In this document: positions 37,483 through 56,330 of the stretch, piece after piece
How positions within the stretch are numbered: position 1 is the first letter of the stretch
Layout: each line of letters starts with the position of its first letter
Assembly (NCBI GenBank): GCA_965368165.1
Contig: CBDULT010000003.1
Coordinates: 133,474-197,473, forward strand
DNA from: an uncultured Thalassospiraceae bacterium
GTDB taxonomy: Bacteria > Pseudomonadota > Alphaproteobacteria > Rhodospirillales > JAPHRK01
Direction: 5' to 3'
Length of the DNA: 64,000 nt
Notes under the pieces: generated by a model
Seen by the model: the letters and a program-made list of their open reading frames with translations, nothing else
Told to the model about the DNA's origin: nothing
Databases searched by the model: none
Program-made: the position numbers and the translations under genes

Positions 37483-37632
37483 AAACTTGCTCGCGTCGTT
37501 CTTGATGAGGCCAAACGACTTGCGATTCAAGAAGGCGTTGCCGATGCGAATGCCAAACGTGTTATTCCTCATAATCAAGTTAAGGCTTGGTTAGAGAGTT
37601 GGGGAACTGATAACGAACTGTTGCCGCATTAA
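37483..37632 (+). pseudogene. Remnant: C-terminal part of a ribbon-helix-helix (CopG-type) antitoxin-like protein
   Basis: Reads KLARVVLDEAKRLAIQEGVADANAKRVIPHNQVKAWLESWGTDNELLPH*. The ...AGRV..H.EVKAWL.SWGT... tail is typical of CopG/RHH antitoxins (from memory). No in-frame start codon follows the upstream TGA at 37468, and no toxin partner is present. Confidence 0.45.
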
Positions 37633-38363: not shown

Positions 38364-38468
38364 GGGATGTCGGCTTGATCCATGAGCGGCAAGAACAAGA
38401 GTTGCCTCTTTCCATGCCGGGGGCGGGTTGTTTTTCCAGGAGAAGGAAGAAGGGTCGGTTAAAATGAC

Positions 38469-39467
38469 TTAGGCTCCTAAGAAACTCTTGTTGCGCTGAT
38501 CCCAAAGAGTTTTGGCTTTTGCCTCGGCTTCGTCAATAGAAGATGCTTTGCCCATGAGTTTTAAAACAACCGCCGTGGTGCCGATTACAGCAGCCTCGCC
38601 ATAAATTTCGGTACTTTCTCCGCGCCACAAAGTTGTCAGCCTGGAAGTATCCATAACTTCATCATGGGCCGCATCAGCCCCATCCATCATAGGCGGCCAT
38701 TCTTCATCAGTCATTTCGCCATTATGCAAAGATTGGATCATCACGGACTTATGGGGACGACGTTCAGCTTCACCACCTTCGCCTTTAAAAACGGCAAGGT
38801 GCGGTTGTCCGGTCATGTCTGCGCCGACGCGATGGACATCTTTGTAATTGGGGTGAAAAATCCCCTGAATTTCGTGTGTCGCCCCAAAGGGGTTGAGCAT
38901 ACGGGCGAAGGTATTAATCGGAGACCGCAAGCCAAGAATAGCCTTAAGGTCCATCAGTTCAGACAGGCGAGGGCTAAGCTGCTCTAAAGCCATAAAGGCA
39001 AAGTTATCTTTTGCTAAATAGGAAGCCGCATCAGCAATACTTTTTGCGGGCAGAATTCCAAACCCTTCGAGAATCTGTTTGGCGTAAACCCGTCCATCTG
39101 TATGACCATCTGCCCCATGCATGAAGACCCGTGTGCCATTTTGAGAAAGCAAAAGGGCTGAAAGGATATACCAAGGAAGTTGTCGCTTTTTCCCGGCATA
39201 AGTCGGCCAATCTAAATCTACTTGTGGGGCATTATCTGGCAGGATAAAGGTTTTGCGAACGGCATCCAGAAAGCCAGCAGCTTCTTCGGGTTCTTCGGTT
39301 CTTACCCGCAATAAACAAAGGAACGCCCCGAGTTGAACGGGCTCTACATTGCCTTCCATGATAAGGTCGAAAGCCTCAGCGGTTTCTTCTCGGGTGAGAG
39401 GACGTGAGAGGCGGGGGCCCTTACCGATGATACGAATAAATTGAGCAAAAGGGTGTTCTGTTGACAT
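38469..39467 (-). CDS. Glycosyl transferase family 3 protein (TrpD2/YbiB-like)
   Basis: N-terminal helical domain (LTREETAEAFDLIMEGNVEPVQLGAFLCLLRV) and a TrpD-like core (RSPINTFARMLNP). The phosphoribosyl-anthranilate motifs look incomplete. Confidence 0.7.
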   Translation of the reverse strand: MSTEHPFAQFIRIIGKGPRLSRPLTREETAEAFDLIMEGNVEPVQLGAFLCLLRVRTEEPEEAAGFLDAVRKTFILPDNAPQVDLDWPTYAGKKRQLPWYILSALLLSQNGTRVFMHGADGHTDGRVYAKQILEGFGILPAKSIADAASYLAKDNFAFMALEQLSPRLSELMDLKAILGLRSPINTFARMLNPFGATHEIQGIFHPNYKDVHRVGADMTGQPHLAVFKGEGGEAERRPHKSVMIQSLHNGEMTDEEWPPMMDGADAAHDEVMDTSRLTTLWRGESTEIYGEAAVIGTTAVVLKLMGKASSIDEAEAKAKTLWDQRNKSFLGA

Positions 39468-39553: not shown

Positions 39554-41674
39554 TTACTTGAAGCCACGCTTTGCGAGAGCAGCAAAGCAATCATCGATAT
39601 GTTGGTCGATTTCTAGGGCTAATGCCAGAGCTTCCCCCCCCTTATCCGTGCGGCAGAGGGCTACAATATTACGGGCAAAGTTAGAGACACCTATAACTCC
39701 CATATTTCCCGCAGCCCCTTGTAAACTATGGCACTCCTTTTCTAAAAGAGGAATGTCATTGGCTTCAACAGCCCGTTTAATCTCTCTTTGCCTGAGCTGC
39801 GAATCTTCAACAAATGATGTCATCAAATCTGAAAGAACGGTATTGCCTAGTGCTTGTCTTAATTCATCCAAAGTTTGATTGTTAATTTGAGCCCCAACGG
39901 GAATATCTGCTTTTTTTGTTAAGCGAGGTGGTTCAGCCGATGCGGAGTTTGGACCGCTGGAAGTCCATTGCTTCAGGATGCTATCCAGGGTTTCGCGCTT
40001 TATGGGCTTGGCAAGGCAATCGGTTGCCCCTTGCTCTTTGAATTTTTTAAAATCTTCAGGAGAAGCATGTCCTGTGACAGCAATGATAACAATGTCTTTT
40101 TCGTTCCCTTGGAGGGCGCGAATTGATTTGGTTGCTTCGATGCCATCCATTCTAGGCATCTCAACATCCATAAGGACGGCTGCATAAGCTTTGTTTTGGA
40201 CAGCATTGAGAGCTTCTAGACCGTCAGCAACGGTTTCTGAATCGTAGCCTATTGAACTCAAAAGACCCTGGGCGACCTTGCGATTGATGTCGTTGTCATC
40301 AGCAACAAGAATGAGCTTTTCTGATGATAGCGGCATTTCTTTTGAGGTTGGGACCGCTTTTGGTTTTTGAGCGGCTTCTTCGGGAACCGTGAAGGGAATC
40401 GTTACCCAGAATGAGCTTCCTTTGCCAAGTTCACTTGTAAATCCAATTTCACCTTTGAGAAGCTCAACAAGCTTTTGGCACAAAGTAAGGCCTATTCCCA
40501 TGCCGCCATACTGCCGAGACACGGATGAATCCCCTTGGGTGAAAGCGGAAAATAGGTTGTTGGCTATTTCCGGCTTAATCCCAATGCCCGTATCAGTGAC
40601 TTCAAGTTTTAAGGTAATAAGGTTCCGTGTTCTGAGCATCTGAGAAATACGGATATCTACATGACCTTTCTCGGTAAATTTAAGGGCATTACTGAGTAGG
40701 TTTTTCAGAATTTTACGAAAACTTTCGCTATCACCAATGAATGTACTAGGGAGTTGTGGGTCAATGTTATAGTTAAGAGGGAGGTTCTTTTGCGTTGCAC
40801 GATCTCGCAGGAAAAGAAGTGTAGCCTCAATGACATCGGTAAGTTCGAATTTTTCTGACTGAACCTTCACTTTGCCGAATTCTAAATCAGAAAAAGTAAG
40901 AATTTCATTGATCTCAATCTGAAGAGCCAGAGCTGATTCCTGGATGGATTTGGCAAAGTTTTTCTGAGATTGGTCTAATTCACTTTGCAAGAGGAGCTCG
41001 GTCATACCAATCACCCCGTTCATTGGGGTGCGCAACTCGTGGCTAACAGCAGACATAAACTCAGATTTAGCTTGGTTTGCATGCTCGGCTATTTGTAAAG
41101 CTTTCGTCAGCTCCGCTTCTTTGTTTTTAATTTCAGAAATGTCACGAATGGAAAGGGTGAAGCCGATTTCCCCGATAGAGTCACAGCGAATCTCAACGAC
41201 TTGCCCGTTTGGGCGAAAATGATCTAACTGAACGGGATAATCTATCGCAGAACGAATTGAAGTGAGAAGTTTTTCTGAATAATCGTCTGTGTCAAACTCA
41301 CCTGCTTGGCCGAGATAAGTAAGCTGCTCATTTAAGGAAACACCAGGTTCGACTAACTCTGAGGGGAGGTTCAGGCTTTCCTGAAGTGCTTTGTTGCAGA
41401 GTATAAGGTTTTCATTTTGATCGAAAAGGGCGAAGCCGGGGTTAAGGGCATTGAAGGCAGTTTTGAGAGTTTGAGAGTTGATTTCGTTTTCTAAAGCAGT
41501 CGAAAGTTGCTTGGAGTGGTTGCTGAAAAGGCTGTCAATAGCCTCCATTATTTCCATAATGGTTTCAGTCGCAGGACCAGAGCTGCCTTCGATAAGTTTC
41601 GAAAGCCCTTCAAAAATAACGAGTTTGGAGGTATCGAGCTCCTCTGCGATTTCTTTTAGAGTCTTAGTACTCAC
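39554..41674 (-). CDS. Hybrid sensor histidine kinase (PAS-HisKA-HATPase-REC-HPt)
   Basis: H-box MSAVSHELRTPMNG, G-box GGMGIGLTLC, REC (ILVADDNDINR...LMDVEMPRMDG), and a C-terminal HPt with HSLQGAAGNMG. Confidence 0.9.
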   Translation of the reverse strand: MSTKTLKEIAEELDTSKLVIFEGLSKLIEGSSGPATETIMEIMEAIDSLFSNHSKQLSTALENEINSQTLKTAFNALNPGFALFDQNENLILCNKALQESLNLPSELVEPGVSLNEQLTYLGQAGEFDTDDYSEKLLTSIRSAIDYPVQLDHFRPNGQVVEIRCDSIGEIGFTLSIRDISEIKNKEAELTKALQIAEHANQAKSEFMSAVSHELRTPMNGVIGMTELLLQSELDQSQKNFAKSIQESALALQIEINEILTFSDLEFGKVKVQSEKFELTDVIEATLLFLRDRATQKNLPLNYNIDPQLPSTFIGDSESFRKILKNLLSNALKFTEKGHVDIRISQMLRTRNLITLKLEVTDTGIGIKPEIANNLFSAFTQGDSSVSRQYGGMGIGLTLCQKLVELLKGEIGFTSELGKGSSFWVTIPFTVPEEAAQKPKAVPTSKEMPLSSEKLILVADDNDINRKVAQGLLSSIGYDSETVADGLEALNAVQNKAYAAVLMDVEMPRMDGIEATKSIRALQGNEKDIVIIAVTGHASPEDFKKFKEQGATDCLAKPIKRETLDSILKQWTSSGPNSASAEPPRLTKKADIPVGAQINNQTLDELRQALGNTVLSDLMTSFVEDSQLRQREIKRAVEANDIPLLEKECHSLQGAAGNMGVIGVSNFARNIVALCRTDKGGEALALALEIDQHIDDCFAALAKRGFK

Positions 41675-41847: not shown

Positions 41848-42939
41848 TTGCCCAGCCTTATTAAAAACGAGTGTTTTGTTAGAATGTCTGCAAGTTCCGC
41901 TTTAAATGTGATGCAACGCCGACACAACATAATAGCCTTATGGCTTTTGTTGGTTTGCCTAATGGTCTTTGCCATGATTGTCCTCGGAGGTGTGACTCGG
42001 TTGACCCAGTCTGGGTTGTCTATGGTCAATTGGCATCCGGTCACGGGGTGGTTCCCTCCTTTAAATGAAGCCGATTGGCAATCAGAATTTGCAAATTATC
42101 AACAATACCCTGAATTCCATAAAAAGAATTTTGATATGGATTTGCAAGGGTTCAAGTCAATTTTTTGGTTTGAATTCCTTCACCGTTTGTGGGGTCGAAC
42201 AATTGGGATCGCCTATTTTGTCCCGATGGTTTTTTTCTTCACGATGGGATGGGTTCAGGGTGGTTTAAGGTTAAAGCTTGTGATTGGATTCGTCCTTGGG
42301 GGACTTCAGGGCGTTTTGGGTTGGTACATGGTAAAGAGTGGGTTGGTTGATAATCCTGATGTTAGCCAATATCGGCTAACGGCTCACTTGGGAGCGGCCT
42401 TGATAATTATAAGCTATCTCCTTTGGTTGGCACTTGGTCTTTTGCATCCCAAACGAAATCAACCTAAAAAATCTTTTGGAAAATTATCAAGGCATGCGTT
42501 TTTTGCCACTTCGTGGGCTTTTATTACCCTTTTGTCAGGTGGTTTTGTCGCTGGGTTGGATGCGGGGTTAACCTATAACACTTTCCCTTTGATGGATGGG
42601 CAGTTGGTTCCCGATGGGCTCTTTCAAATGGAGCCAGTATTTATTAATTTTTTTGAAAATATAACAACAGTACAATTTGATCACCGTCTGCTTGCCGAGT
42701 CCTTGTTTGTTATCATTGTTTATCTTTGGTGGCGGGCGAGGGAGCTGGATATTCCTCAGCGGGGACGGTTGGCACTTAATTTACTTTTTGCCATGATTTG
42801 GATTCAGGTTGGGTTAGGTATTACCACCCTGCTGTTGGTGGTTCCGGTTTCTATCGCCGCCATTCACCAGGCTGGGGCAGTGATTGTCCTCAGTTTGGCT
42901 ATTTGGGTTACTCATGAAGCCAAGAACGCCAACTCCTAA
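41848..42939 (+). CDS. ctaA: Heme A synthase (COX15/CtaA)
   Basis: Eight TM helices with conserved His in LHR and DHR motifs (FEFLHRLWGR, QFDHRLLA). TTG start in the track; the ATG at 41884 (MSASSAL) is an alternative. Confidence 0.85.
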   Translation: MPSLIKNECFVRMSASSALNVMQRRHNIIALWLLLVCLMVFAMIVLGGVTRLTQSGLSMVNWHPVTGWFPPLNEADWQSEFANYQQYPEFHKKNFDMDLQGFKSIFWFEFLHRLWGRTIGIAYFVPMVFFFTMGWVQGGLRLKLVIGFVLGGLQGVLGWYMVKSGLVDNPDVSQYRLTAHLGAALIIISYLLWLALGLLHPKRNQPKKSFGKLSRHAFFATSWAFITLLSGGFVAGLDAGLTYNTFPLMDGQLVPDGLFQMEPVFINFFENITTVQFDHRLLAESLFVIIVYLWWRARELDIPQRGRLALNLLFAMIWIQVGLGITTLLLVVPVSIAAIHQAGAVIVLSLAIWVTHEAKNANS

Positions 42940-42971: not shown

Positions 42972-43160
42972 ATGGATTTATTTTATTTTACCGCTGCAGG
43001 AATCGTCTCCTGGGTTGTTGCTGATGCCCTGTTAGACCGAATCGAAACCATGAGGGGGAAGCGTTTTACCCATCGAAGCGTCATTTTCTTCGGATTGATC
43101 CTGGTAACACTGCTTATTGTCTTCGAAGGAAGTAAATACATCCTTGGGGCAAAAACCTAA
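42972..43160 (+). CDS. Small two-TM hypothetical membrane protein
   Basis: 62 aa with two hydrophobic helices, lying 32 nt downstream of ctaA. Confidence 0.4.
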   Translation: MDLFYFTAAGIVSWVVADALLDRIETMRGKRFTHRSVIFFGLILVTLLIVFEGSKYILGAKT

Positions 43161-43177: not shown

Positions 43178-43191
43178 TTGATTTAACTCAA
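43178..43191. promoter_or_regulatory. FNR/Dnr-type box, one mismatch (TTGATttaaCTCAA)
   Basis: Matches TTGAT-N4-ATCAA except for one base. It lies upstream of the HCO operon, but about 360 nt from the first ORF. Confidence 0.4.
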
Positions 43192-43552: not shown

Positions 43553-43711
43553 ATGACCGAACCCAATAACACTGAGGACGGCCCTGTTCCGTTCATGCAA
43601 CAGCTTTTGGATAATCCATTTTTGCTGCTGTTCGTAGGCGTCGCATTACCGTCGGTTCTTTACACAATCTGGGGAATCGTGGACGTAATGTCGATTCCTG
43701 TTGGTCAATAA
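43553..43711 (+). CDS. Unlisted 52-aa single-TM ORF preceding HCO subunit II
   Basis: ATG preceded by GGGAGG at -12 to -7. Reads MTEPNNTEDGPVPFMQQLLDNPFLLLFVGVALPSVLYTIWGIVDVMSIPVGQ*. It ends 18 nt before subunit II and is below the ORF-track size cutoff. Confidence 0.45.
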   Translation: MTEPNNTEDGPVPFMQQLLDNPFLLLFVGVALPSVLYTIWGIVDVMSIPVGQ

Positions 43712-43729: not shown

Positions 43730-44266
43730 ATGGCTATTTTCCCCCCACCACAAAAAATTTGGTGGAATGAGCCGGTAGAGAGAACTGAAGCTCTCTGGAT
43801 CGGTATCGCCCTTATTTGGGCGATGATCTTGTTCTTCATGATGCCTTATTGGCACATTGTTGGGCAACAAAACCTTTCAAATGAAGCTTACAAGGTTAGC
43901 CCTGAAGCTTTTGTTGAAAAAGTTGATGCTTATGTTGCTGCGAATACTATTCGCGAAGAAGGTGACACTGGCATTCCTGTTGTAAAAGCAACTGACAGCG
44001 GCGACGTTTATATGCTTGGTCGTCTATGGGAATGGTTCCCGATTCTTGAGCTTGAAAAAGGCAAAAGCTATCGTTTCCATCTTTCCTCTGCTGACTGGCT
44101 GCATGGTTGGTCACTTCAGCCTACCAACATCAATATTCAGGTTCACCCTGGCTATGAGATGATCTTTAACGTAACGCCAACCGAAACCGGTGAATTCGGC
44201 GTTGTTTGTAATGAATTTTGTGGAGTTGGTCACCATACCATGCTCGGCAAAATTTATGTGAAATAA
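43730..44266 (+). CDS. Heme-copper oxidase subunit II with intact CuA site
   Basis: One N-terminal TM helix and a cupredoxin domain. CuA ligands are H125 (DWLHGW) and C160-NEF-C164-GVG-H168-HT-M171. Confidence 0.85.
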   Translation: MAIFPPPQKIWWNEPVERTEALWIGIALIWAMILFFMMPYWHIVGQQNLSNEAYKVSPEAFVEKVDAYVAANTIREEGDTGIPVVKATDSGDVYMLGRLWEWFPILELEKGKSYRFHLSSADWLHGWSLQPTNINIQVHPGYEMIFNVTPTETGEFGVVCNEFCGVGHHTMLGKIYVK

Positions 44267-44279
44267 GGGGGCATTAACA

Positions 44280-45962
44280 ATGGCTGCGACTCACGAATAT
44301 CGCACATGTCCTGACACTGGATTCAAAATTGATCTTAATGCTGATAAGCTGATCAAATGGAATGCCGTGTCAGCTGTAGTGTTCTTGCTCGTTGGTGGTC
44401 TTTTTGGCCTCCTGGTAGCTCTAACACGCTGGCCTACAGTACACTTACTGGACGCTGAACTTTTCTATCTGGCTCTGACTGCACACGGTGTGGACATCCT
44501 TTTGGTATGGCTGATCTTCTTTGAAATGGCCCTGCTTTACTTCTGCTCTAGCGTTCTCCTGCAATGCCGTGTAGCCACACCAAAACTCGGTTGGCTTGCT
44601 TACTGGCTGATGCTTGGTGGTGCTGTAATGGGTAACGTTGCCGTTCTGATGGGCGAATCCAGCGTTATGTTCACCTCTTACGTGCCGATGAAGGCTTCTC
44701 CCTTGTTCTACTTGGGTCTGATCCTTTTCGCCGTTGGTGCACTTATCGTTTGTTTCATCTTCTTCGGCACTTTGGTTATTGCTAAGAAAGAAAAAACCTT
44801 CGAGGGTTCAATTCCTCTGGTGACCTATGGTGCCATGGTTGCAGCTATTATCGCTGTTTACACCATCGTATCTGGTGCTGTGATCCTGATCCCGACCCTT
44901 GCTTGGTCATTAGGTTTTATTCCTTACATTGATACCCTGCTCTATAAGGTTATCTGGTGGGGACTTGGTCACTCTTCTCAACAGGTTAATGTTTCCGCTC
45001 AAATCTCTTGCTGGTACGCTGTTGCCGCAGTCGTTTTTGGTGCGAAGCCAATTTCCGAGAAGGTTTGCCGTACGGCCTTCCTCATGTACATCTTGTTCCT
45101 GCAGTTAGCTTCTGCTCACCACCTTCTGGTGGATCCAGGCCTGACTTCAGAATACAAGATCTTCAACACCTCTTACGCTTTCTACCTCGCTGTATTCGGT
45201 TCCATGATGCATGGTTTGACCGTTCCTGGCGCGATGGAATTGGCGCAGCGCCGCAAGGGCTACACCAAAGGGCTGTTTGAGTGGCTGAGGAAAGCTCCTT
45301 GGGGTAATCCTGCATTCTCAGGTACTTTCCTGTCGATCGTTATCTTTGGCTTCCTCGGTGGTATCACCGGCGTTGTTATGGGTACCGAGCAGTTGAACCT
45401 GATCATGCACAACACCATCTATGTACCGGGTCACTTCCACGCTACGACAGCTGGTGGTACCACATTGGCATTCATGGCTCTGTCTTACTGGTTGGTTCCA
45501 ACCTTATGGCAACGTGAGCTTTGGGCACCGGGTCTGGCTAAACTTCAGCCTTACCTGTTCGGTATCGGTGTTTCCGGTATTGCTCTGTTCCAAATGGGTG
45601 CTGGTACCTTGGGTGTTTCCCGTCGTCACTGGGATATGACCTTTGCTGATGCTGCTTTGACCTATGACTATCCAGCTGCGGCTCACCTTATGATGGCTCT
45701 TAATGGCGTGTTCGCTATTATCGCTGCTATCGGTGGTGGTCTCTTCTGTATCCAAATGGTCCTTACCATTCTTGGTAAGAAAAAACCAGCTCCTGCAGAA
45801 GCTCCTGCTGCACCAGCTGCCGAAGCTCTGACTGGTCACGGTCATGGCGCAGGTCTTGCTGTACCAGGAACCTTTGTTTTGGCTCTGATCTTCTTGACCA
45901 CTTTCGTTCTCTACTATTTCGTGAACTGGAAGTATCTGTCAGAAGTCTGGATCCTCAGCTAA
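44280..45962 (+). CDS. Heme-copper oxidase superfamily subunit I, B-family-like, lacking the cross-linked Tyr (candidate NO reductase)
   Basis: Six canonical His: H69, H231, H280/H281, H385/H387. The motif is GH231-SSQ-Q235 where A/B oxidases have H-x3-Y. An extra C-terminal helix follows a Pro/Ala linker. Confidence 0.9.
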   Translation: MAATHEYRTCPDTGFKIDLNADKLIKWNAVSAVVFLLVGGLFGLLVALTRWPTVHLLDAELFYLALTAHGVDILLVWLIFFEMALLYFCSSVLLQCRVATPKLGWLAYWLMLGGAVMGNVAVLMGESSVMFTSYVPMKASPLFYLGLILFAVGALIVCFIFFGTLVIAKKEKTFEGSIPLVTYGAMVAAIIAVYTIVSGAVILIPTLAWSLGFIPYIDTLLYKVIWWGLGHSSQQVNVSAQISCWYAVAAVVFGAKPISEKVCRTAFLMYILFLQLASAHHLLVDPGLTSEYKIFNTSYAFYLAVFGSMMHGLTVPGAMELAQRRKGYTKGLFEWLRKAPWGNPAFSGTFLSIVIFGFLGGITGVVMGTEQLNLIMHNTIYVPGHFHATTAGGTTLAFMALSYWLVPTLWQRELWAPGLAKLQPYLFGIGVSGIALFQMGAGTLGVSRRHWDMTFADAALTYDYPAAAHLMMALNGVFAIIAAIGGGLFCIQMVLTILGKKKPAPAEAPAAPAAEALTGHGHGAGLAVPGTFVLALIFLTTFVLYYFVNWKYLSEVWILS

Positions 45963-46016
45963 AGGCTGCGGTGAAGGTAATCTGTTAAAACGATTGCCGA
46001 GTTAACTTTTTAGGGG

Positions 46017-46057
46017 GGGCGCCTTTCCGGTCACGGAAGGGCGCCCTTCTTTTTTTC
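46017..46057 (+). terminator. Rho-independent terminator after HCO subunit I
   Basis: 13-bp GC-rich stem (46017-46029 / 46034-46046, one G-U pair), 4-nt loop, then TTCTTTTTTT. Confidence 0.7.
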
Positions 46058-46134: not shown

Positions 46135-47022
46135 ATGCTGAGCATGTTGATATCAAAAATGACCAAAACTTTGTTGAGTTTTTTTACGGCTCTTTTCGCC
46201 CTTGTGGTAATGATGGGGAACCTGTCTTTAGCGGCTCCAAGTGCTGTTATTGATGCTTGGCCTCCTAACGCCAAAGATATGGATCAAAAGGCCGCGTTTA
46301 AATATAGCCAAAGCGCGCTGAAGCACGTGATCAGAGACGCAAAATTTACGGATCAAAATGGCAACCCGGTTTCATTGGCTGATTTCAGGGGGAAACCCTT
46401 GGTCGTAAGCTTTATCTATACAAGCTGTGTTTCCGTTTGTGTCACCATTACTGATAGCCTGTTACATTCTCTAGATGTGGCGAACGAAACCTTTGGTGAA
46501 GATCAATTTAATATTCTAACCATTGGCTTTGATACCAGTTTTGACACGCCTGAAAGTATGAAAAAGTTTGCCGAAAGGCAGGATGCGGGAGCAAAAAACT
46601 GGATGTTTTTGAGCGGTGATATCCTCAATGTTTCCCAGCTTTCCGATGACTTGGGGTTCTTCTTCTATCGGACCCCAGAGGGGTTTGACCACCTGGCTCA
46701 AGTTACCGTGATTAATAAAGTTGGTAAGGTTTATAAACAGGTTTACGGTGAATCCTTTGATACGCCTCACCTTATTGAGCCCCTCAAGGATATTATTTAT
46801 CATACGGAAAAGTCGATTTTTACGGCCGAAGGGCTCTACAAGAAACTGCAGTTCTACTGCACTGTGTATGACCCGGAGACCGATAGATATAAGTTTGACT
46901 ATTCCTATTTTATCAGCTTATTTGCGGGAGTTACCGTGATGATAGTTCCTGCTTGGGTGCTGTTCAGAACCGTGCGAAGAACTCGAAGTGAGCGGAACGC
47001 ACGAAAAGCAAAATTAGTTTGA
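46135..47022 (+). CDS. SCO1/SenC copper chaperone with extra C-terminal segment and second TM helix
   Basis: N-terminal anchor and thioredoxin-fold CxxxC (SFIYTSCVSVCVT) with a downstream His (FDHLAQV). The C-terminal YCTVYDPETDRYKFDYS is followed by a TM helix. Confidence 0.8.
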   Translation: MLSMLISKMTKTLLSFFTALFALVVMMGNLSLAAPSAVIDAWPPNAKDMDQKAAFKYSQSALKHVIRDAKFTDQNGNPVSLADFRGKPLVVSFIYTSCVSVCVTITDSLLHSLDVANETFGEDQFNILTIGFDTSFDTPESMKKFAERQDAGAKNWMFLSGDILNVSQLSDDLGFFFYRTPEGFDHLAQVTVINKVGKVYKQVYGESFDTPHLIEPLKDIIYHTEKSIFTAEGLYKKLQFYCTVYDPETDRYKFDYSYFISLFAGVTVMIVPAWVLFRTVRRTRSERNARKAKLV

Positions 47023-47128: not shown

Positions 47129-48712
47129 TTGTTGGATGCATTTAAGACTGCACTCAGGGTGCCATTCCTCTATTTCGAAGGACTTCTGGATGCTATTTTT
47201 GGGCAGCGGTTTAATCCGGTGTACCATCTTGGCGCACTCTGCTGGTTTTTCTATTGGATCGTTGCAATTACGGGTCTTTACCTGTTCATGGTTTTTGATA
47301 CAGGCGTACATGTCGTATACGAATCAATTGAATGGTTAACCAATGAGCAGTGGTGGTTTGGCGGCATCGCCCGGAGCCTCCACCGTTATGCTTCTGATGG
47401 TATGGTTTTTGCCATGCTTATTCATATGCTGCGGGAATTTGCCTTAGATCGTTATCATGGTGTGCGGTGGTTTGCATGGTTTACAGGCGTGCCGCTGATC
47501 TGGCTTCTTTTGACTTCAGGGATTACAGGCTATTGGTTGGTCTGGGATGAATTAGCCCAGTACATGGCTGTCGCCTCTTTTGAATGGCTTGATTGGCTTT
47601 CAATCTTTAGTGAACCTATTGCCAACAACTTCTTGCGTGAAGGCAGCCTTGGGGATCGTTTCTTCACCTTGCTGATCTTCATCCACATTTTTGTGCCGCT
47701 ATTTATGTTGTTTATCATGTGGATTCATCTGCTGCGTATGGCGCGAGCTGAAATCAATCCACCGAAAGCGATTGCCTTGGGGGCCTTTGCTCTATTGCTT
47801 GTCCTCTCTTTGGTCTATCCAGCAACAAGCCACCCGCCTGCTGACCTGAGTAAAATTCCGGTCGTTCTTAATCTCGATTGGTGGTTCTTGTTCGGCTATC
47901 CCTTCTTGGATATGACAGGACCAGGAACTCTATGGGCTGTCGCGGTTATTGGCTCTATAATTATTGCTGTACTGCCTTTTGTTATTCCTCATCGTATACC
48001 GACCCCAGCAGTCGTTAACCTTGATAATTGTAATGGCTGTGGACGTTGTTTTGAGGACTGTCCCTTTGGTGCAGTAACAATTCAACCCCGGACGGATGGT
48101 CATCCTAAGTATGAATTTGAGGCTATTGTTAAGGATAGCTTCTGTACCGCATGTGGAACTTGTTCGGGGGCCTGTCCATCCTCAAGCCCTTATCGTCGTG
48201 GCGAAGAACTGGTCACGGGTATTGATCTTCCAGACGTCCCGCTGACGGCTATTCGGGCAAGGCTTAATGCTGAGGCTAAGCGCTTAAAAGGCGATGTTAA
48301 GATTGTTGTCTTTGGATGTGAATTCGGAGGGGCTTTGAAGGAACTCGAAAGCGATGTGGTCGGAACGGTGCAAATGTCTTGTATAGCCCAGGTTCCTCCC
48401 GCATTTATTGAATATGCTTTGTCTCGTGCTGGGTTCGACGGTCTCGTCCTTTCAGCTTGTCGCCCAGGGGATTGTTATCACCGATTGGGTGTCCATTGGA
48501 CTGAAGAACGTTTGACTGGTTATCGGGACCCCTACCTTCGTCCAAAAATTTCTCGTGACGCCATCCGTGTTACCTGGGCGCGTCCAACCGAAATGGGGAA
48601 AATTAAACGTGAACTTGGTGAGTTTGTTGAGACTGTTACCAACAGAAAGACGGCTCCTGTAATTGATTCTGCTGAAGTTACCGATGCTAACGAAACGACA
48701 ACAGGCGAGTAG
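47129..48712 (+). CDS. Fusion protein: di-heme cytochrome b core + 2x[4Fe-4S] ferredoxin domain + MvhD/FlpD-like domain
   Basis: H85/H99 and H186/H200 sit at the 14-residue register. Cluster motifs CNGCGRCFEDCP and CTACGTCSGACP. MvhD-like VVFGCEFGG...MSCIAQV...GFDGLVLSACRPGDCYH. TTG start. Confidence 0.8.
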   Translation: MLDAFKTALRVPFLYFEGLLDAIFGQRFNPVYHLGALCWFFYWIVAITGLYLFMVFDTGVHVVYESIEWLTNEQWWFGGIARSLHRYASDGMVFAMLIHMLREFALDRYHGVRWFAWFTGVPLIWLLLTSGITGYWLVWDELAQYMAVASFEWLDWLSIFSEPIANNFLREGSLGDRFFTLLIFIHIFVPLFMLFIMWIHLLRMARAEINPPKAIALGAFALLLVLSLVYPATSHPPADLSKIPVVLNLDWWFLFGYPFLDMTGPGTLWAVAVIGSIIIAVLPFVIPHRIPTPAVVNLDNCNGCGRCFEDCPFGAVTIQPRTDGHPKYEFEAIVKDSFCTACGTCSGACPSSSPYRRGEELVTGIDLPDVPLTAIRARLNAEAKRLKGDVKIVVFGCEFGGALKELESDVVGTVQMSCIAQVPPAFIEYALSRAGFDGLVLSACRPGDCYHRLGVHWTEERLTGYRDPYLRPKISRDAIRVTWARPTEMGKIKRELGEFVETVTNRKTAPVIDSAEVTDANETTTGE

Positions 48713-48721
48713 GGAAAAGAG

Positions 48722-49288
48722 ATGAAAACGAACATTGTTCCAGATAAATATTTCCCAGAAGGTATTGCCGAAAAAGTAACGCCTGCGGTGTTGGTTCGTC
48801 GCATAATAGGCTTGTCAGCTTTTGCTCTTCTGACCATGTTTATTATTGGATACTTTTCAGCGTCTCCGGCTTATCATCACTTGGCTGAAAACGAAGCCGT
48901 TATTAAAGTTAGTATTACCCATAACGGGAAACGCCTTCAGGCATGTGTGAAAAAGACACGGGCCGAGTTGGCAAAATTGCCTCCAAATATGCGGGCAAAG
49001 ATGACTTGCGGACGTGAAAGAACACCTGTTCTATTGGTTGTGGCTATTGATGGGAAAGAAATTTATCGTCATGTTTCAAAGCCTAACGGTCTTTCCAGTG
49101 ATGGAGCTTCTATTTTTTATCAAAAACTGATTGTTCCTACGGGGACTCACGAAGTAAGTGTCTTGATGCGTGACAGCGTGCGCGATGAAGGTTTTGATTT
49201 TGAATATAGAGATAAGGTTGATTTGACCAGTGGTCGCAACTTTGTTGTGACCTTTGATGAGCAAAATCGCAAATTTAAAATCTATTGA
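48722..49288 (+). CDS. Single-TM hypothetical protein co-transcribed with the cytochrome b fusion
   Basis: Starts 9 nt after the upstream stop. One TM helix (IIGLSAFALLTMFIIGYF), then a beta-rich domain with two Cys. Confidence 0.5.
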   Translation: MKTNIVPDKYFPEGIAEKVTPAVLVRRIIGLSAFALLTMFIIGYFSASPAYHHLAENEAVIKVSITHNGKRLQACVKKTRAELAKLPPNMRAKMTCGRERTPVLLVVAIDGKEIYRHVSKPNGLSSDGASIFYQKLIVPTGTHEVSVLMRDSVRDEGFDFEYRDKVDLTSGRNFVVTFDEQNRKFKIY

Positions 49289-49337: not shown

Positions 49338-49376
49338 GAATAGGTGTCGGCATTCGGCACCTATTCTTCTTATTTT
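49338..49376 (+). terminator. Rho-independent terminator after the cytochrome b operon
   Basis: 12-bp stem (49338-49349 / 49555-style pairing at 49355-49366, one G-U pair), 5-nt loop, then TTCTTATTTT. Confidence 0.6.
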
Positions 49377-49381
49377 AAACT

Positions 49382-50110
49382 GTGAGCCACGTGACAGAAA
49401 CCAGTTCCCAATTTTTACCGGATAACGCTCTTGGAGCTTTAAAAGCGACAGCTCTTTTTAAGCGGTTGCCGAAGGATCAAATCGCTACTCTTTTTAGCGG
49501 TGGGGCTGTTGAAGAAATGTCTCTTAATGAGGTCCTCTTTAAACAAGACGAAGATGCTGATCGCTTTTATTTAATTCTGAGTGGTCGCGTCGAATTGTTT
49601 GTTGAGTCGGCGAAACACAAAGAAAGCATTATCGATATTATTGGTCCGGGTGAATATTTTGGAATTGCGTCTATCTTTGAAAAAGGGGCTTTCCAAAACG
49701 GCGCTAAAGTCGTTGAAGACGCAACTTTCGTGGTCATGCCAGCGATTCCTTTCCTTGAGCACTTAGAGGGCAACTTCCCCCTTATTAAAGATATGATGGC
49801 CAGCATGTCTTTTCATCTTCGCTCCCTGGTCCGTCAGGTGAGTGAGCTAAAGCTCAAAACAACGGGGCAACGGTTGGGGAGTTTTCTTCTTGGGCTTACC
49901 GATGTTGAAACCGGCAAGGCTCAGGTAAAACTTCCCTATGACAAAAAATTACTGGCGAATCGTTTAGGGATGAAACCTGAAAGCCTCTCAAGAGCTTTAG
50001 GGAAATTAAGAGATGTGGGAGTTGTTGGGGACCATGACTCATTGATTTTAGAAGATGTGGAAACTTTAAGAATATTTTGTCAGGATTCTGACTTGATGCA
50101 GTCATCATAA
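49382..50110 (+). CDS. Crp/Fnr-family regulator, Dnr/NnrR type (no N-terminal Cys cluster)
   Basis: cNMP-binding-like beta-roll, dimerisation helix, and an HTH with the FNR-family E-x-x-S-R motif (MKPESLSRALGKL). GTG start. Confidence 0.85.
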   Translation: MSHVTETSSQFLPDNALGALKATALFKRLPKDQIATLFSGGAVEEMSLNEVLFKQDEDADRFYLILSGRVELFVESAKHKESIIDIIGPGEYFGIASIFEKGAFQNGAKVVEDATFVVMPAIPFLEHLEGNFPLIKDMMASMSFHLRSLVRQVSELKLKTTGQRLGSFLLGLTDVETGKAQVKLPYDKKLLANRLGMKPESLSRALGKLRDVGVVGDHDSLILEDVETLRIFCQDSDLMQSS

Positions 50111-50147: not shown

Positions 50148-50846
50148 TTGAAGTCAGTATCACGGTTATTAAGCGATGAAGACCTCGAACTGGTCTGTAA
50201 AGCACCAACCTTTATTGAACTCCCAGAAGAAGACGTTGAGCGATTGATGTCCAGTGCTTCAGCCCGGAGCATGCCCCGTCATACCTTATTGTTTAGTCAA
50301 GGCGACCCTGCTGATCGATTCTATGTGGTCCTTGGGGGGAAAGTTAAACTTTTCACTGCCATGGAAAGTGGTGATGAGGGGGTCGTCGAAATAGTTGAAC
50401 CCATCCACACTTTTGCCGAAGCGGCGATGTTTGCTTCTGGCAAATTTCCTGTAAATGCTGAAGTTGTCGAAAACTCAGTATTGGTCCAGGTAAGTGCCGA
50501 GCCTTTTTTTAGAGAGCTTTCGCAAAACACAGCCTTGGCTTTTAAAATCATGGCGGCAATGTCACGTCGTCATCGTCGCCTGCTTAGGCAAATCTCCGAC
50601 CTTAAATTAAAGTCCCCAGGTCAACGCTTAGGGTCGTTCTTGCTCTCTTTGACGGAGAAGCTAGAGGGAAAGGCTCATGTCAAACTTCCCTTCGATAAAA
50701 CCCTTATTGCCAGCCATGTGGGCATGAAACCAGAAAGCCTTTCTCGGGCTATGGCGCGCCTTAGAGATATTGGTGTGATATGTGAGAGGCGCGATGTCGA
50801 GATTAATGATATCAACGCCCTCAGGGTCTTCTGCGGCGAAGAGTAG
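50148..50846 (+). CDS. Second Crp/Fnr-family regulator, Dnr/NnrR type, tandem paralogue
   Basis: Same architecture and HTH (MKPESLSRAMARL). Strong similarity to the upstream copy (GQRLGSFLL.LT...GKA.VKLP.DK.L). TTG start. Confidence 0.85.
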   Translation: MKSVSRLLSDEDLELVCKAPTFIELPEEDVERLMSSASARSMPRHTLLFSQGDPADRFYVVLGGKVKLFTAMESGDEGVVEIVEPIHTFAEAAMFASGKFPVNAEVVENSVLVQVSAEPFFRELSQNTALAFKIMAAMSRRHRRLLRQISDLKLKSPGQRLGSFLLSLTEKLEGKAHVKLPFDKTLIASHVGMKPESLSRAMARLRDIGVICERRDVEINDINALRVFCGEE

Positions 50847-51440: not shown

Positions 51441-54119
51441 TTAGTTTTTGATTGCGTTTATTTCAGCGTCACCATTATCGATGCCGAGCTTGTATTCCAG
51501 TGATACGTGGTGGAAACGAGCTGTTGTGTAGTCATCGTGAATGGCAAAACCAACGGTGTAGAGTTTACCAGGTTCAAGAGAAACCAAACCGTTGGCAGCC
51601 TTTAAAGGCCGTTTCATGGTTACGGTCCAAACGCCATCGGCGAGGGTGCCCGTATATTCTACCGATTGCCCCCCCGTCATATCACGTTTGTCGAGAACAA
51701 CACCTGATTCAGAAACGCCACCATTCCCACTGAGGAAGCGGGTGAGGTCCATGAACTGGCCGGCGCTTTTCAGGCCATCAATATCGCCTTGTGGTTTGGC
51801 TTTGTCCCAGGCACCGCGTGGTTTGCCATCGTTGCCGTTGACTTCCCATTCGGTTTTGGTTTCCAGCAAATATTTAGTAACACCTGCTTTTGCCGCGTCC
51901 TGGTCTTTAGGGTGGTCAGGCATGTAGCGTGAGTCATGGTGACAGGTTGCCCAACAGCCAGCATGTGTGGCTTTTTCAACCTTGTCATCATCAATCATCA
52001 TGGCGAACTTGATTTGGTTCGCAGGGTCCATTTTACCGCCGTCGACGAAAGGTACAGGGGCGTGGGCTACGTCAGGCCACTGGAACTGCATGTGAAGGTT
52101 TTCACCATCATTAACAGCTTTAACGCTGACTTTAATATGGCCGCGTTTGCCAGGAATTGGGGTCGGCTCGGCTTTTTCACCAGAGACGATCTTGGCACCC
52201 ATTTGCTCTTGTTCACCTTCGTGACATTCGGTGCAGCGATCATCTAATTTCTTGATCGCACGCGCCCCACCATGATCAGAGCCTTTGTAGACCCACTCAA
52301 GGGAAGCCTGCCCAGGGTATAAGAAAGTGATTTCCTTTGCAGTTGCTTTGCTAAAGTCGATGCTTCCACCACCACTAGAAGAAGCGGCGGCAGGCGTGGC
52401 AGCATCAGCAGCAGGAGCGGCAGAAACCGTCCCCCCCGCTGGGGCAGCAATGGTTGCGGCATTTACATCAGCTTCCGCATTGTCGATGCCAACCTTGTAT
52501 TCCAAGGAAACATGGTGGAACCGAGCATTGGTGAAGTCATCGTGAATGGCAAAGCCCATGGTGTAGAGCTTGTCTTTCTCGAAGGATACAAAACCATCTG
52601 AGGCTTTCAGCGGACGGGTTAAGAAAGCAACCCATTTTCCATCAACCAAATTGGCTGTGATAGTAGATTTAGCACCACCTTCCATAACGCGTTTGTCGAG
52701 GACATAACCCGTTTCGGTTTTCTTGTCGCCGCTTTTGTAGCGAACCAAGTCAAGGAAGACGCCGTCTTTCTTGTAGCCATCGATTTCAGCTTGAGGACGA
52801 GCTTTGTCCCAGGCTCCGCGAGGAACGCCATCGTTGCCGTTGACCTCCCACTCGGTTTTAGTTTCCAGCAAATATTTTGTGATACCCGCTTTAGCCGCAT
52901 CCTGGTCTTTAGGGTGATCAGGCATGTAGCGTGAATCGTGGTGACAGGTTGCCCAGCACCCGGCATGGTCAGCTTTTTCAACTTTGCCATCGTCAAACAT
53001 GACAGCAAGTTTGATTTGGTTGGCTGGATCCATTTTCCCGCCGTCAACAAAAGGAACAGGGGTGTGGCCTGCATCGTCCCATTCAAAGCGCATGTAAAGG
53101 TTTGTGCCGTCATTGGCAGCCTTTACGTTTGCTTTAATGTGACCTCGTTTGCCTGGGATGGGAGTCGGTTCGGCTTTCTCACCAGAAACGATCTTGGCAC
53201 CCATTTGCTCTTGTTCACCTTCGTGGCACTCGGTGCAACGATCGTCTAGTTTTTTGATCGCGCGTGCGCCACCATGGTCGGAGCCTTTATAGACCCACTC
53301 AAGGGAAGCTATGCCAGGGTAGAGGAGAGTAATGTCCTTCCCTTCTACACCGTCCCAAGCAATCGCTTCGGCACTTCCACCACCTGAGGCAGCGGCGGCT
53401 TTTGGTGCCGGAGCTGCTGCGGCAGCTTTTTTAGCTTCTTCAGCTTTTTGGGCATCAGCAGCGGCCTTGAGTTCACCTTTGGTTGGTTTCTTTTCTTTTG
53501 GTGGCAAGTGACGATCATCGCCTGCTTTACCATCATAAGCGTCTTCACCTTCGCGAAGCAGGCCGCTAACATCTCTGTGAGCGATGCCTTTATGACAATC
53601 GATGCAGGTCATGTTGTCGGCTTGTGCCAATTGGTGATTTTTCCAAGCACGTTTTTTCTGTTTGTCTTGCTTCATGCTATCCCAGGAGTGACAGTTACGA
53701 CATTCTCTGGAATCAGTTTCCTTCATCGCCTTCCAAACATTTTTGGCGAGCTGGAAACGCTTCGCTTCAAATTTTTCAGGCGTATCAATTGTTCCAAGAA
53801 CCTTATGAAGAACCTCGTTCGAGGCTTGGATCTTCCGGATCATTTTATAGATCCAAGGCTTAGGGACGTGACAGTCTGAACAGGTTGCACGAACACCAGT
53901 TCGGTTCTGGAAGTGAACCGTTTCTTTGTATTCCTGATAGACGTTGTCTTCCATTTCATGACATGAAATACAGAAAGGCAATGTCTGGGTAGCTTCCATA
54001 ACCGTATTGAAAGCACCCCAAAAAACGATACCGACAACAAAAAATACTGCTGCGGCGAATAATGATGCCCCTAAAGGGCGCCAGGAAAGGATACGTGTAA
54101 TCATATCACCAATGGCCAT
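51441..54119 (-). CDS. nirT: NapC/NirT tetraheme quinol dehydrogenase fused to two tandem heme-c + beta-sandwich (NirB / cytochrome c-552-like, EB_dh-type) modules
   Basis: N-terminal TM helix plus CISCH, CSDCH, CRNCH and TCIDCHKGIAH, then a Lys/Ala/Pro linker. Two ~300-aa repeats follow, each with CTECH and CWATCH. Strong SD (GGGGGGAAG). Confidence 0.85.
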   Translation of the reverse strand: MAIGDMITRILSWRPLGASLFAAAVFFVVGIVFWGAFNTVMEATQTLPFCISCHEMEDNVYQEYKETVHFQNRTGVRATCSDCHVPKPWIYKMIRKIQASNEVLHKVLGTIDTPEKFEAKRFQLAKNVWKAMKETDSRECRNCHSWDSMKQDKQKKRAWKNHQLAQADNMTCIDCHKGIAHRDVSGLLREGEDAYDGKAGDDRHLPPKEKKPTKGELKAAADAQKAEEAKKAAAAAPAPKAAAASGGGSAEAIAWDGVEGKDITLLYPGIASLEWVYKGSDHGGARAIKKLDDRCTECHEGEQEQMGAKIVSGEKAEPTPIPGKRGHIKANVKAANDGTNLYMRFEWDDAGHTPVPFVDGGKMDPANQIKLAVMFDDGKVEKADHAGCWATCHHDSRYMPDHPKDQDAAKAGITKYLLETKTEWEVNGNDGVPRGAWDKARPQAEIDGYKKDGVFLDLVRYKSGDKKTETGYVLDKRVMEGGAKSTITANLVDGKWVAFLTRPLKASDGFVSFEKDKLYTMGFAIHDDFTNARFHHVSLEYKVGIDNAEADVNAATIAAPAGGTVSAAPAADAATPAAASSSGGGSIDFSKATAKEITFLYPGQASLEWVYKGSDHGGARAIKKLDDRCTECHEGEQEQMGAKIVSGEKAEPTPIPGKRGHIKVSVKAVNDGENLHMQFQWPDVAHAPVPFVDGGKMDPANQIKFAMMIDDDKVEKATHAGCWATCHHDSRYMPDHPKDQDAAKAGVTKYLLETKTEWEVNGNDGKPRGAWDKAKPQGDIDGLKSAGQFMDLTRFLSGNGGVSESGVVLDKRDMTGGQSVEYTGTLADGVWTVTMKRPLKAANGLVSLEPGKLYTVGFAIHDDYTTARFHHVSLEYKLGIDNGDAEINAIKN
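51462..52373 (-). repeat. Internal coding repeat 2 of the NirT fusion (aa 583-886)
   Basis: See repeat 1. Shared blocks include PVPFVDGGKMDPANQIK, HAGCWATCHHDSRYMPDHPKDQDAAKAG, KYLLETKTEWEVNGNDG and ARFHHVSLEYK. Confidence 0.9.
52476..53384 (-). repeat. Internal coding repeat 1 of the NirT fusion (aa 246-548)
   Basis: Aligns along its whole length with aa 583-886 at an offset of 334 aa (1002 nt). The first 57 aligned residues from LEWVYKGS are identical. Confidence 0.9.
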
Positions 54120-56316: not shown

Positions 56317-56330
56317 TTGACCAACATCAA
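56317..56330. promoter_or_regulatory. Consensus FNR/Dnr box TTGACcaacATCAA upstream of the nirE operon
   Basis: Both half-sites match the consensus. The centre is about 105 nt upstream of the nirE GTG. Confidence 0.7.

Follow-up and report, generated by a model that had tools for sequence, protein, structure and literature searches.

A cytochrome b6-type iron-sulfur fusion protein is a fixed accessory of eNOR operons and a candidate transmembrane electron conduit

Results

Architecture of the fusion protein

A 64,000-nucleotide stretch of the genome of an uncultured Thalassospiraceae bacterium (GenBank assembly GCA_965368165.1, contig CBDULT010000003.1, positions 133,474 to 197,473), hereafter the window, carries a gene for a 527-amino-acid (aa) protein, FUS, in which a cytochrome b6/subunit IV-like membrane half is joined to two [4Fe-4S] motifs and an MvhD/FlpD domain (Table 1). 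The gene stands between those of a long SCO1/SenC protein and a 188-aa protein, P188, downstream of the genes of an eNOR-type heme-copper oxidoreductase (HCO). A first-pass annotation, made from the sequence alone, had described FUS as an uncharacterized redox module of a denitrification island. The FUS and P188 open reading frames (ORFs), the 9-nt gap between them and the terminator-like hairpin that it reported are all present, and a product identical to the 527-aa protein has been called in public assemblies.

All three parts of the architecture that had been proposed for FUS scored above the Pfam gathering thresholds: Cytochrome_B at aa 26 to 204 (E 8.8e-14; 52.2 bits for PF00033 against a cut-off of 27.2), the Fer4 dicluster at aa 295 to 351, and FlpD (PF02662) at aa 411 to 504 (E 4.2e-11; 43.4 bits against a cut-off of 22.3). 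Matches to NCBIfam models were all below threshold (cytb_ExtP, cytochrome b6, and the HdrA2 C-terminal ferredoxin plus MvhD model at aa 292 to 505), and FUS therefore has no NCBIfam equivalog. In an alignment of 16 relatives of about 50% identity, the four heme ligands, H85, H99, H186 and H200, were invariant, as were all eight ferredoxin Cys residues and C397, C418 and C444; C449 was kept in at least 90% of these relatives. Among 84 sequences from related loci, H85/H99/H186/H200, C301/304/307/311, C339/342/345/349 and C397/C418/C444 were at least 97% conserved. A word-indexed search with FUS returned 4560 proteins at E ≤ 1e-5, of which the best 120 all had the same three domains, and an exhaustive search of 50%-identity cluster representatives returned 495 clusters at E ≤ 1e-30. 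The number of species-level genomes that encode a relative is at least 557. The domains, ligands and other confirmed features of FUS lie far beyond chance, and FUS is a typical member of a large, mis-annotated family.

Segment and profile alignments identify the membrane part of FUS as cytochrome b6 followed by the first two helices of subunit IV of the b6f complex. The FUS profile (residues 17 to 210) aligned almost without gaps on residues 19 to 212 of cytochrome b6 (E 1e-23). FUS has the features that define the cytochrome b/b6 superfamily (PF00033), namely a four-helix bundle in which two His pairs lie on helices B and D at a spacing of 13 residues, and the classical register claimed earlier for both pairs is borne out by this match and by the invariance of the ligands. 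In the canonical bc1/b6f register, which we take to apply here, H85 and H186 would hold the P-side heme bL, and H99 and H200 the N-side heme bH. The position of b6 Cys35, the heme ci ligand, is occupied by Gln in the FUS family profile and by His in the window protein. The segment past helix D (aa 204 to 296, comprising transmembrane [TM] helix 5, a loop and TM6), searched alone as a profile, matched b6f subunit IV (E 6e-4) and also helices E and F of mitochondrial cytochrome b. Within it, the FUS sequence 'PA...PAD' aligned on 'PAMVGEPAD' of subunit IV, and an invariant D250-W251 ('LDWW' in FUS, 'LDWFY' in most relatives) coincided with the E-W of PEWY, a Qo-site motif whose Pro is replaced by Leu in the FUS family. 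The cd loop of FUS, 'GYWLVWD', resembles 'GYSLPWD' of b6, and the pattern 'GY-x-L-x-WD' is common to b6 and bc1. On these alignments, a Qo-type pocket appears to be retained in FUS.

Topology prediction supported six TM helices, the number estimated previously. Only helices E and F precede the Fe-S domain, which falls short of a full C-terminal half (helices E to H, or E to G of subunit IV), and the first [4Fe-4S] motif begins about 15 residues past TM6. The Rieske motif CxH...CxxH was absent from every window ORF of at least 80 aa, in agreement with the earlier statement that the locus lacks a Rieske protein and cytochrome c1; no Rieske protein is annotated in the related loci that were inspected.

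The soluble half was likewise as first described. Both CX2CX2CX3CP motifs were found, with their eight Cys residues invariant, and the MvhD/FlpD assignment of the C-terminal domain was supported by sequence and by fold. The FUS family profile matched MvhD among solved structures at E 5e-13, and the C-terminal domain of the AlphaFold model, which is confident over aa 290 to 510 (predicted local distance difference test [pLDDT] about 85), superposed on MvhD of the Hdr/Mvh complex (5odc_D) with a target-normalized TM score of 0.72 (Foldseek). The N-terminal half of the model matched cytochromes b. On the ORF, Pfam, ligand, profile, fold and hairpin checks, the first-pass description was therefore right in every checkable detail.

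Linkage of FUS to eNOR operons

A census was made of the 80 best FUS loci (45 to 64% identity), which come from alpha- and gammaproteobacterial metagenome-assembled genomes (MAGs) and were searched with the window's own proteins. A P188 homologue lay directly downstream of FUS in all 80. SCO1 lay directly upstream in 78, the two exceptions being contigs that start less than 250 nt upstream. Genes for HCO subunit I (64 to 86% identity) and subunit II were found upstream of FUS wherever the contig reached, and 71 of the 72 linked HCOs had the eNOR signature GH-x-x-Q-Q. Heme O synthase was encoded between HCO subunit I and SCO1 in 44 loci. A bacteriohemerythrin gene followed P188 in 68 of the 80 loci and on a Defluviimonas plasmid (for example, L007 10088-10483 and L094 11113-11517); the window and its closest relatives lack it and have two Crp/Fnr genes in its place. 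nirS was within 10 kb of FUS in only 27 of the 80 loci, and CtaA in only 7. The operon thus reads CuA subunit, HCO subunit I (Tyr to Gln), heme O synthase (variable), long SCO1, FUS, P188 and hemerythrin (variable).

The same arrangement was found with eNOR-signature HCOs of only 51 to 56% identity in one MAG each of Nitrospirota and Nitrospinota and in a 3-Mb contig of unassigned origin. It is also present on a 165-kb plasmid of Defluviimonas sp. SAOS-178_SWC (NZ_CP156080.1, genes V5734_RS00055-00090, locus L094), on which the SCO, FUS and P188 genes overlap. The RefSeq names for the eNOR-signature HCO subunit I of this plasmid (L094 5546-7276) are misleading. Two loci depart from the rule: L007, with the order UbiA-SCO1-FUS-P188-hemerythrin and no adjacent HCO genes, and L090, in which the gene lies among housekeeping genes. 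Collectively, these data establish an obligate genetic linkage of FUS to SCO1, P188 and eNOR across phyla. Rather than a loose part of the denitrification island, as it had been taken to be, or a free module of the nir island, FUS is a fixed accessory of eNOR-type operons and is also found without nir genes.

P188 as the partner of FUS

P188, directly downstream of FUS in every locus of the census, is its obligate partner. The AlphaFold2 (AF2) model (pLDDT 91.8) consists of a single TM helix and a β-sandwich, and the conserved residues are H67, C75, R91, C96, R98, R100, D127-G128 and Y133. P188 had no Pfam family, no significant fold match in the PDB and no match to DOMON or EB_dh; all 57 of its matches at E ≤ 1e-3 were likewise without a Pfam domain and were unnamed or called hypothetical. 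The earlier picture of a small single-TM partner of unknown fold therefore stood as far as the helix and the missing fold match are concerned, and fell short in that the protein has a periplasmic β-sandwich domain and is often fused to FUS.

Continuous FUS-P188 reading frames were found at three loci, of which L038 and L063 are near-identical in the junction and the P188 region and L050 is clearly different. Of the 150 best cluster representatives of the FUS family, at least 64 carry a P188-like domain C-terminally. These natural fusions independently fix the topology and uphold the cytoplasmic location that had been proposed for the Fe-S/MvhD half. Since that half must be cytoplasmic, the fusions also place the N terminus of P188 in the cytoplasm and its β-sandwich in the periplasm. 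As seen in their sequences, the fusions argue for a physical partnership of FUS and P188. Apparent SCO1-FUS fusions in L040 and L049 were rejected on account of an internal stop. One called ORF (P0281) joins SCO1, cytochrome b and Fer4 with no obvious TM helix between SCO1 and cytochrome b, and is doubtful.

Variation at the cytoplasmic and periplasmic ends

The FUS-type membrane module, with its four His residues and 'DWF' motif, is joined to other modules in further relatives. In two of them, flavin reductases take the place of the Fer4 and FlpD domains. One (P0221) carries a flavodoxin-FAD-NAD(P)H module of the CysJ/CPR type, and the other (P0227) carries a [2Fe-2S]-FAD-NAD(P)H module of the BenC type. 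Modules of the CysJ and BenC types are NAD(P)H-oxidizing donors in characterized relatives. In the Nitrospirota and Nitrospinota MAGs (L091 10108-12924 and L092 7772-11383), a NuoF-like gene (Complex1_51K, SLBB, NADH_4Fe-4S) overlaps the end of a FUS-P188 gene; a second FUS paralogue lies past the NuoF-like gene, and a rhodanese gene is on the opposite strand. Thus, the cytoplasmic modules of the FUS family are interchangeable and tied to NAD(P)H. At the other end of the protein, one relative with this membrane module (P0289) has an extra C-terminal cytochrome c beyond the periplasmic extension, and a Chloroflexi ORF that combines cytochrome b6, DMSOR_beta-like, FlpD and cytochrome c domains has been listed without comment (PMC8756737, Table A3).

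The eNOR operon of the window and its neighbors

Gln at the position of the cross-linked Tyr is diagnostic of eNOR, whereas Asn is found in sNOR and bNOR and Asp in gNOR (PMC8756737, Table A4). The GH-SSQ-Q of the window HCO aligned on GH-PIV-Y237 of Thermus thermophilus ba3. With B-family relatedness and the Tyr-to-Gln exchange in subunit I, a CuA subunit II and CtaA upstream, the window genes have the predicted makeup of an eNOR operon; CtaA has been reported in many such operons (PMC11214002). The SCO1 proteins linked to FUS retain CxxxC and the His ligand. In the SCO1 protein, the extension 'RLFCTxYDPxxxxYRFDYS', which contains an extra invariant Cys and is followed by a TM helix and a basic cytoplasmic tail, is conserved in 76 linked SCO1 proteins.

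Table 1. Features of the eNOR region of the window (positions are those of the 64,000-nt stretch)
Feature	Position	Strand	Evidence or remark
FUS: 527-aa cytochrome b6/subunit IV-like + 2x[4Fe-4S] + MvhD/FlpD fusion	47129..48712	+	TTG start; ORF, Pfam, family alignment, PDB profile and fold matches
FUS aa 1-210: cytochrome b6-like four-helix core	47129..47758	+	Profile match to b6; invariant His
FUS aa 211-290: b6f subunit IV-like helices E and F, periplasmic loop 'PATSHPPADL...LDWWFLFGYP'	47759..47998	+	Segment profile search
FUS aa 295-351: two CX2CX2CX3CP [4Fe-4S] motifs	48011..48181	+	Pfam Fer4 families; eight invariant Cys; similarity to HdrA/HdrA2 C terminus
FUS aa 387-509: MvhD/FlpD-type domain with C397, C418, C444 and C449, putative [2Fe-2S]	48287..48655	+	Pfam FlpD; MvhD match; 5odc_D fold match
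P188: 188 aa, one N-terminal TM helix (aa 21-47) and periplasmic β-sandwich	48722..49288	+	9-nt gap after FUS; AF2 model; 80/80 loci
Long SCO1/SenC: CxxxC (C98/C102), H186, C-terminal extension (C242-T-x3-P-x4-Y), second TM helix, Lys/Arg-rich tail	46135..47022	+	Pfam, topology, conservation
eNOR-type HCO subunit I, Gln235 (GH-SSQ-Q) instead of cross-linked Tyr, HH ligands kept	44280..45962	+	Alignment to T. thermophilus ba3
eNOR subunit II, complete CuA motif H...C-N-E-F-C-GVG-H-H-T-M	43730..44266	+	Motif
Conserved 52-aa ORF upstream of eNOR subunit II	43553..43711	+	Found in 64/80 loci
FNR/Dnr-like box TTGATTTAACTCAA upstream of eNOR structural genes	43178..43191	+	Box search; weak evidence
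Conserved 62-aa ORF	42972..43160	+	Found in 38/80 loci
CtaA/COX15 heme A synthase	41848..42939	+	Pfam
Strong GC-rich hairpin and T-run (terminator or attenuator) separating eNOR subunit I from SCO1	46012..46051	+	Hairpin search
Terminator-like hairpin closing the SCO1-FUS-P188 unit	49338..49366	+	Hairpin search
Two tandem Crp/Fnr-family regulators directly after the SCO1-FUS-P188 unit	49382-50110, 50148-50846	+	
892-aa NapC/NirT tetraheme protein with two EB_dh (ethylbenzene dehydrogenase gamma-like) domains	51441-54119	-	

The conserved 52-aa and 62-aa ORFs each encode a hydrophobic stretch and belong to no Pfam family; their products may be small eNOR subunits. The hairpin between eNOR subunit I and SCO1 has 18 pairs, 11 of them G-C; in other loci, these two genes are only 70 to 160 nt apart or have cyoE between them. 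The hairpin may be an attenuator, or a processing or stability element by which the balance between structural and accessory proteins is set. In the search for FNR/Dnr boxes, the total count was not above chance and no box was found directly upstream of SCO1; an FNR-like box is also present between nirS and nirE (56317-56330).

Farther downstream, the window encodes a cupredoxin, the NirT-EB_dh fusion, nirS and nirECFDLGHJN. The EB_dh halves of the 892-aa fusion have long identical stretches in common, including a 49-residue run, KKLDDRCTECHEGEQEQMGAKIVSGEKAEPTPIPGKRGHIK, and their sequence suggests a recent internal duplication. Homologues of this fusion were near FUS in only 2 of the 80 loci. 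Just upstream of CtaA (37629-39467 and 39554-41674, both on the minus strand) are genes for a CbiX-type chelatase, a glycosyl-transferase-family-3 protein (anthranilate phosphoribosyltransferase-like) and a hybrid PAS histidine kinase that also has receiver and Hpt domains; these genes are syntenic in the closest relatives, L001 and L004.

Relation of FUS to known complexes

FUS resembles PetB/PetD of the b6f complex and cytochrome b of the bc1 complex in its di-heme four-helix core, His register, helices E and F, and cd loop, and its ef loop aligns on that of subunit IV. Unlike these proteins, it occurs without a Rieske protein or cytochrome c1/f, and it lacks helix G with the rest of the C-terminal part and the Cys for heme ci. 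Its N side is wired to Fe-S clusters where b6f and bc1 have a Qi/Qn site, and P188 is its periplasmic partner. In the absence of a Rieske protein, membership in a bc1 or b6f complex was rejected. The soluble half (aa 292 to 505) corresponds to MvhD and to the C-terminal ferredoxin plus MvhD part of HdrA2, with four conserved Cys residues and an MvhD-like fold. In contrast to the methanogen Mvh/Hdr proteins, the FUS module is covalently joined to a membrane cytochrome b and is found in bacteria. No hydrogenase or Hdr genes were found in the window region or in related loci. Membership in a hydrogenase was rejected, as the name "hydrogenase iron-sulfur subunit" reflects the FlpD domain only.

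The first-pass annotation had compared FUS with DsrMK and HdrDE. The logic of HdrDE, DsrMK and HmeCD, a membrane di-heme cytochrome b wired to a cytoplasmic Fe-S protein, is indeed that of FUS. However, those systems use a NarI/HdrE-type cytochrome b and a catalytic subunit with a CCG domain, neither of which was detected in FUS. No CCG or HdrD domain was found by Pfam in FUS or its neighbors, and the only cytochrome b matches were to PF00033 and PF13631. Because the cytochrome b is of the bc1/b6f type and the CCG domain is missing, membership in HdrDE/DsrMK was rejected and the comparison is one of analogy.

The closest published description is a preprint on Ferrigenium straubiae of May 2026 (bioRxiv 10.64898/2026.01.22.701106). 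It reports an eNOR operon with heme o synthase, sco1 and two "rather unusual" genes "with partial similarity to bc1 complex chain C"; the first encodes cytochrome b, [Fe-S], FAD and NADH modules and was proposed to be a quinol:NAD+ oxidoreductase, and the second encodes cytochrome b and [Fe-S] modules. All of the operon's products were detected by proteomics, the cytochrome b proteins at about the level of Sco1 and well below the eNOR subunits (bioRxiv 10.64898/2026.01.22.701106). Likened by description, the second of these "Cytbc1CCC-like" proteins carries the IMG name used for the FUS family, and the first has the architecture of the BenC-type variant. The FUS family is so far flagged only in this one preprint, through relatives in one genus; the PNAS paper on eNOR, its supplement aside, does not mention a FUS-type accessory gene.

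More distant systems have single features in common with FUS. NOX/FRE proteins and cytochrome b561-DOMON proteins (CYBDOM) work alike only in that a cytoplasmic donor, a transmembrane di-heme cytochrome b and an extracytoplasmic β-sandwich or acceptor are combined. The logic of NOX is seen in the family variants to which NAD(P)H-flavin reductases are fused, but FUS had no Ferric_reduct, FAD/NADPH-domain or b561 match in Pfam, and its heme-binding fold is unrelated to those of NOX/FRE and CYBDOM. In an N-oxide context, the Rieske/cytochrome b complexes of anammox bacteria also combine a bc-type cytochrome b with NAD(P)-linked cytoplasmic modules; they contain Rieske proteins and multiheme cytochromes c (PMC12954380), whereas the FUS unit contains none. 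In the norSY-senC-orf1 cluster of the sNOR of ammonia oxidizers (PMC4940428), the order HCO subunit II, HCO subunit I, senC/SCO1 and an unnamed ORF is the same, the comparison being by gene order only. sNOR has Asn in place of the eNOR Gln at the Tyr position.

Discussion

We tentatively favor a reading, which we hold to be somewhat short of probable, in which FUS conducts electrons across the membrane, from a cytoplasmic donor to the copper side of eNOR in the periplasm. FUS would work with P188 and the unusually long, doubly anchored SCO1 as the core of a conduit dedicated to eNOR. Electrons from a separate cytoplasmic donor would enter at the MvhD-type [2Fe-2S] domain, pass through the two [4Fe-4S] clusters to the N-side heme b (H99/H200) and on to the P-side heme b (H85/H186), and exit at the periplasmic face, in or next to the Qo-type pocket formed by the cd ('GYWLVWD') and ef ('LDWW') loops, which the β-sandwich of P188 would cap. 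We infer cofactor occupancy, the physical complex, the direction of electron flow and the identities of donor and acceptor.

Outward flow is favored because the fused flavin reductase modules are NAD(P)H-oxidizing in all characterized relatives and because a periplasmic cytochrome c forms the end of one variant. The NuoF-like gene that overlaps FUS-P188 in the Nitrospirota and Nitrospinota loci was counted for the same direction, as was the Chloroflexi ORF with a cytochrome c domain. The preferred purpose of such a conduit would be maturation, with SCO1, copper and the CuA cysteines kept reduced; alternatively, it could supply electrons directly to CuA during NO reduction. Maturation is preferred since FUS stands among biogenesis genes (heme O synthase and SCO1), since L007 has such genes without an adjacent HCO, and since the Ferrigenium proteins are about as abundant as Sco1.

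Several points weigh against this reading. The strictly conserved Qo-like residues point, as far as sequence can, to quinone chemistry, for which an outward protein-to-protein wire has no need, and we know of no other CuA enzyme that requires such a module for its assembly. The window encodes no donor for the MvhD end. No cofactor motif is recognizable in P188, whose paired Cys residues probably form a structural disulfide; some divergent members have lost both this pair and H67. The membrane part of the AlphaFold model is weak (mean pLDDT 65.7, with several stretches below 50), and heme-to-cluster distances are not measurable in it. The census is biased, as it covers only the closest relatives, and in one locus (L090) the fused gene lies among housekeeping genes with no HCO within 8 kb. 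In the literature, we found no experimental work on any member of the FUS family.

The retained Qo-like residues lead to the main rival, a Rieske-less bifurcation of the Qo type. Quinol would be oxidized in the Qo-like pocket, one electron going to a high-potential periplasmic acceptor that feeds eNOR, NO/N2O being a very oxidizing couple, and the other inward through bL, bH and the Fe-S clusters to NAD(P)+ or ferredoxin. The PEWY-like D250-W251 and the cd-loop pattern are conserved, NAD(H)-binding modules are fused or adjacent in lineages of the chemolithoautotroph type that need reverse electron flow, and MvhD connects to bifurcating HdrA in methanogens. A quinol:NAD+ oxidoreductase coupled to NO reduction has also been proposed for Ferrigenium, with a parallel proposal for the Rieske/cytochrome b complexes of anammox bacteria (PMC12954380). 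However, neither a Rieske protein nor another recognizable high-potential one-electron acceptor stands beside the pocket, a part that P188, as a protein without a cofactor motif, does not supply. By standard bioenergetics, inward flow from P-side quinol to NAD+ would be uphill in redox terms and against the membrane potential. Diflavin reductases of the CysJ type, as in P0221, are not known to run toward NADPH, and heterotrophic hosts such as the Rhodospirillales-type organism of the window have no obvious need for such a reaction. We consider this mechanism unlikely. More doubtful is its full form, in which FUS, P188 and SCO1 would make up a Rieske-less bc-type complex that bifurcates at the Qo site, with high-potential NO reduction by eNOR driving the second electron inward through the Fe-S/MvhD part to NAD(P)+ or ferredoxin.

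Two further explanations rank below bifurcation. The membrane di-heme cytochrome b with its cytoplasmic Fe-S chain could, in the manner of DsrMK/HdrDE, deliver electrons from quinol inward to a cytoplasmic acceptor, for instance for re-reduction of the di-iron site of bacteriohemerythrin or for repair of NO-damaged centers. This role would fit the hemerythrin gene that follows P188 in most loci as well as on the Defluviimonas plasmid, and the NO-generating context given by nirS in about a third of the census. The scheme is nevertheless improbable: the cytochrome b is not of the NarI/HdrE type and no CCG/HdrD catalytic domain is present, the window's own clade has no hemerythrin, the step from a P-side quinol site to low-potential clusters of the ferredoxin type would be thermodynamically unfavorable, and the periplasmic domain of P188 and the linkage to SCO1 would be left unexplained.

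A role in heme A(s) synthesis at low oxygen, with FUS as a ferredoxin/reductase-like donor to CtaA, as Yah1/Arh1 are to Cox15, and hemerythrin as the supplier of O2, appears quite improbable. eNOR has heme a(s) in both heme sites, and CtaA is O2 dependent (PMC11214002). Heme O synthase is encoded in over half of the operons, CtaA near the operon in the window and hemerythrin in most loci, and the NAD(P)H-FAD-[2Fe-2S] variants resemble a fused Arh1-Yah1 pair. Against these points, CtaA is rarely found near FUS in the census, organisms with aa3 oxidases make heme A without a FUS module, and neither the adjacency to P188 and SCO1 nor the cytochrome c-bearing variant would be accounted for. Finally, the gene of L090 among housekeeping genes and that of L007 without adjacent HCO genes would suit a general respiratory quinone-interacting protein whose proximity to eNOR is incidental or merely reflects co-regulation, but the gene order is conserved in 78 to 80 of the 80 loci and in three phyla, and the genes overlap or are translationally coupled, which makes this highly improbable.

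The favored conduit bears on a gap in the biology of eNOR. Enzymes of the eNOR type reportedly rank with the most widespread natural NO reductases, which makes them a source of N2O (PMC11214002). The purified enzyme has been assayed only with artificial donors (PMC11214002). The SCO1-FUS-P188 unit, found in eNOR operons of several phyla, is a direct candidate for the missing link to a physiological donor or to maturation. The annotations "hydrogenase iron-sulfur subunit" and "cbb3-type oxidase subunit I" mislead for thousands of sequences.

FUS also represents an unusual use of the bc1/b6f cytochrome b scaffold, in which a Qo-type pocket appears to be kept without a Rieske protein and the N-side heme would be coupled to exchangeable modules (Fe-S/MvhD, NAD(P)H-flavin reductases or NuoF-like proteins). 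If bifurcation were true, it would be a new mode of energy coupling that yields low-potential reductant from quinol during denitrification. The family bears on the evolution of Rieske/cytochrome b complexes and on the existence of noncanonical bifurcation.

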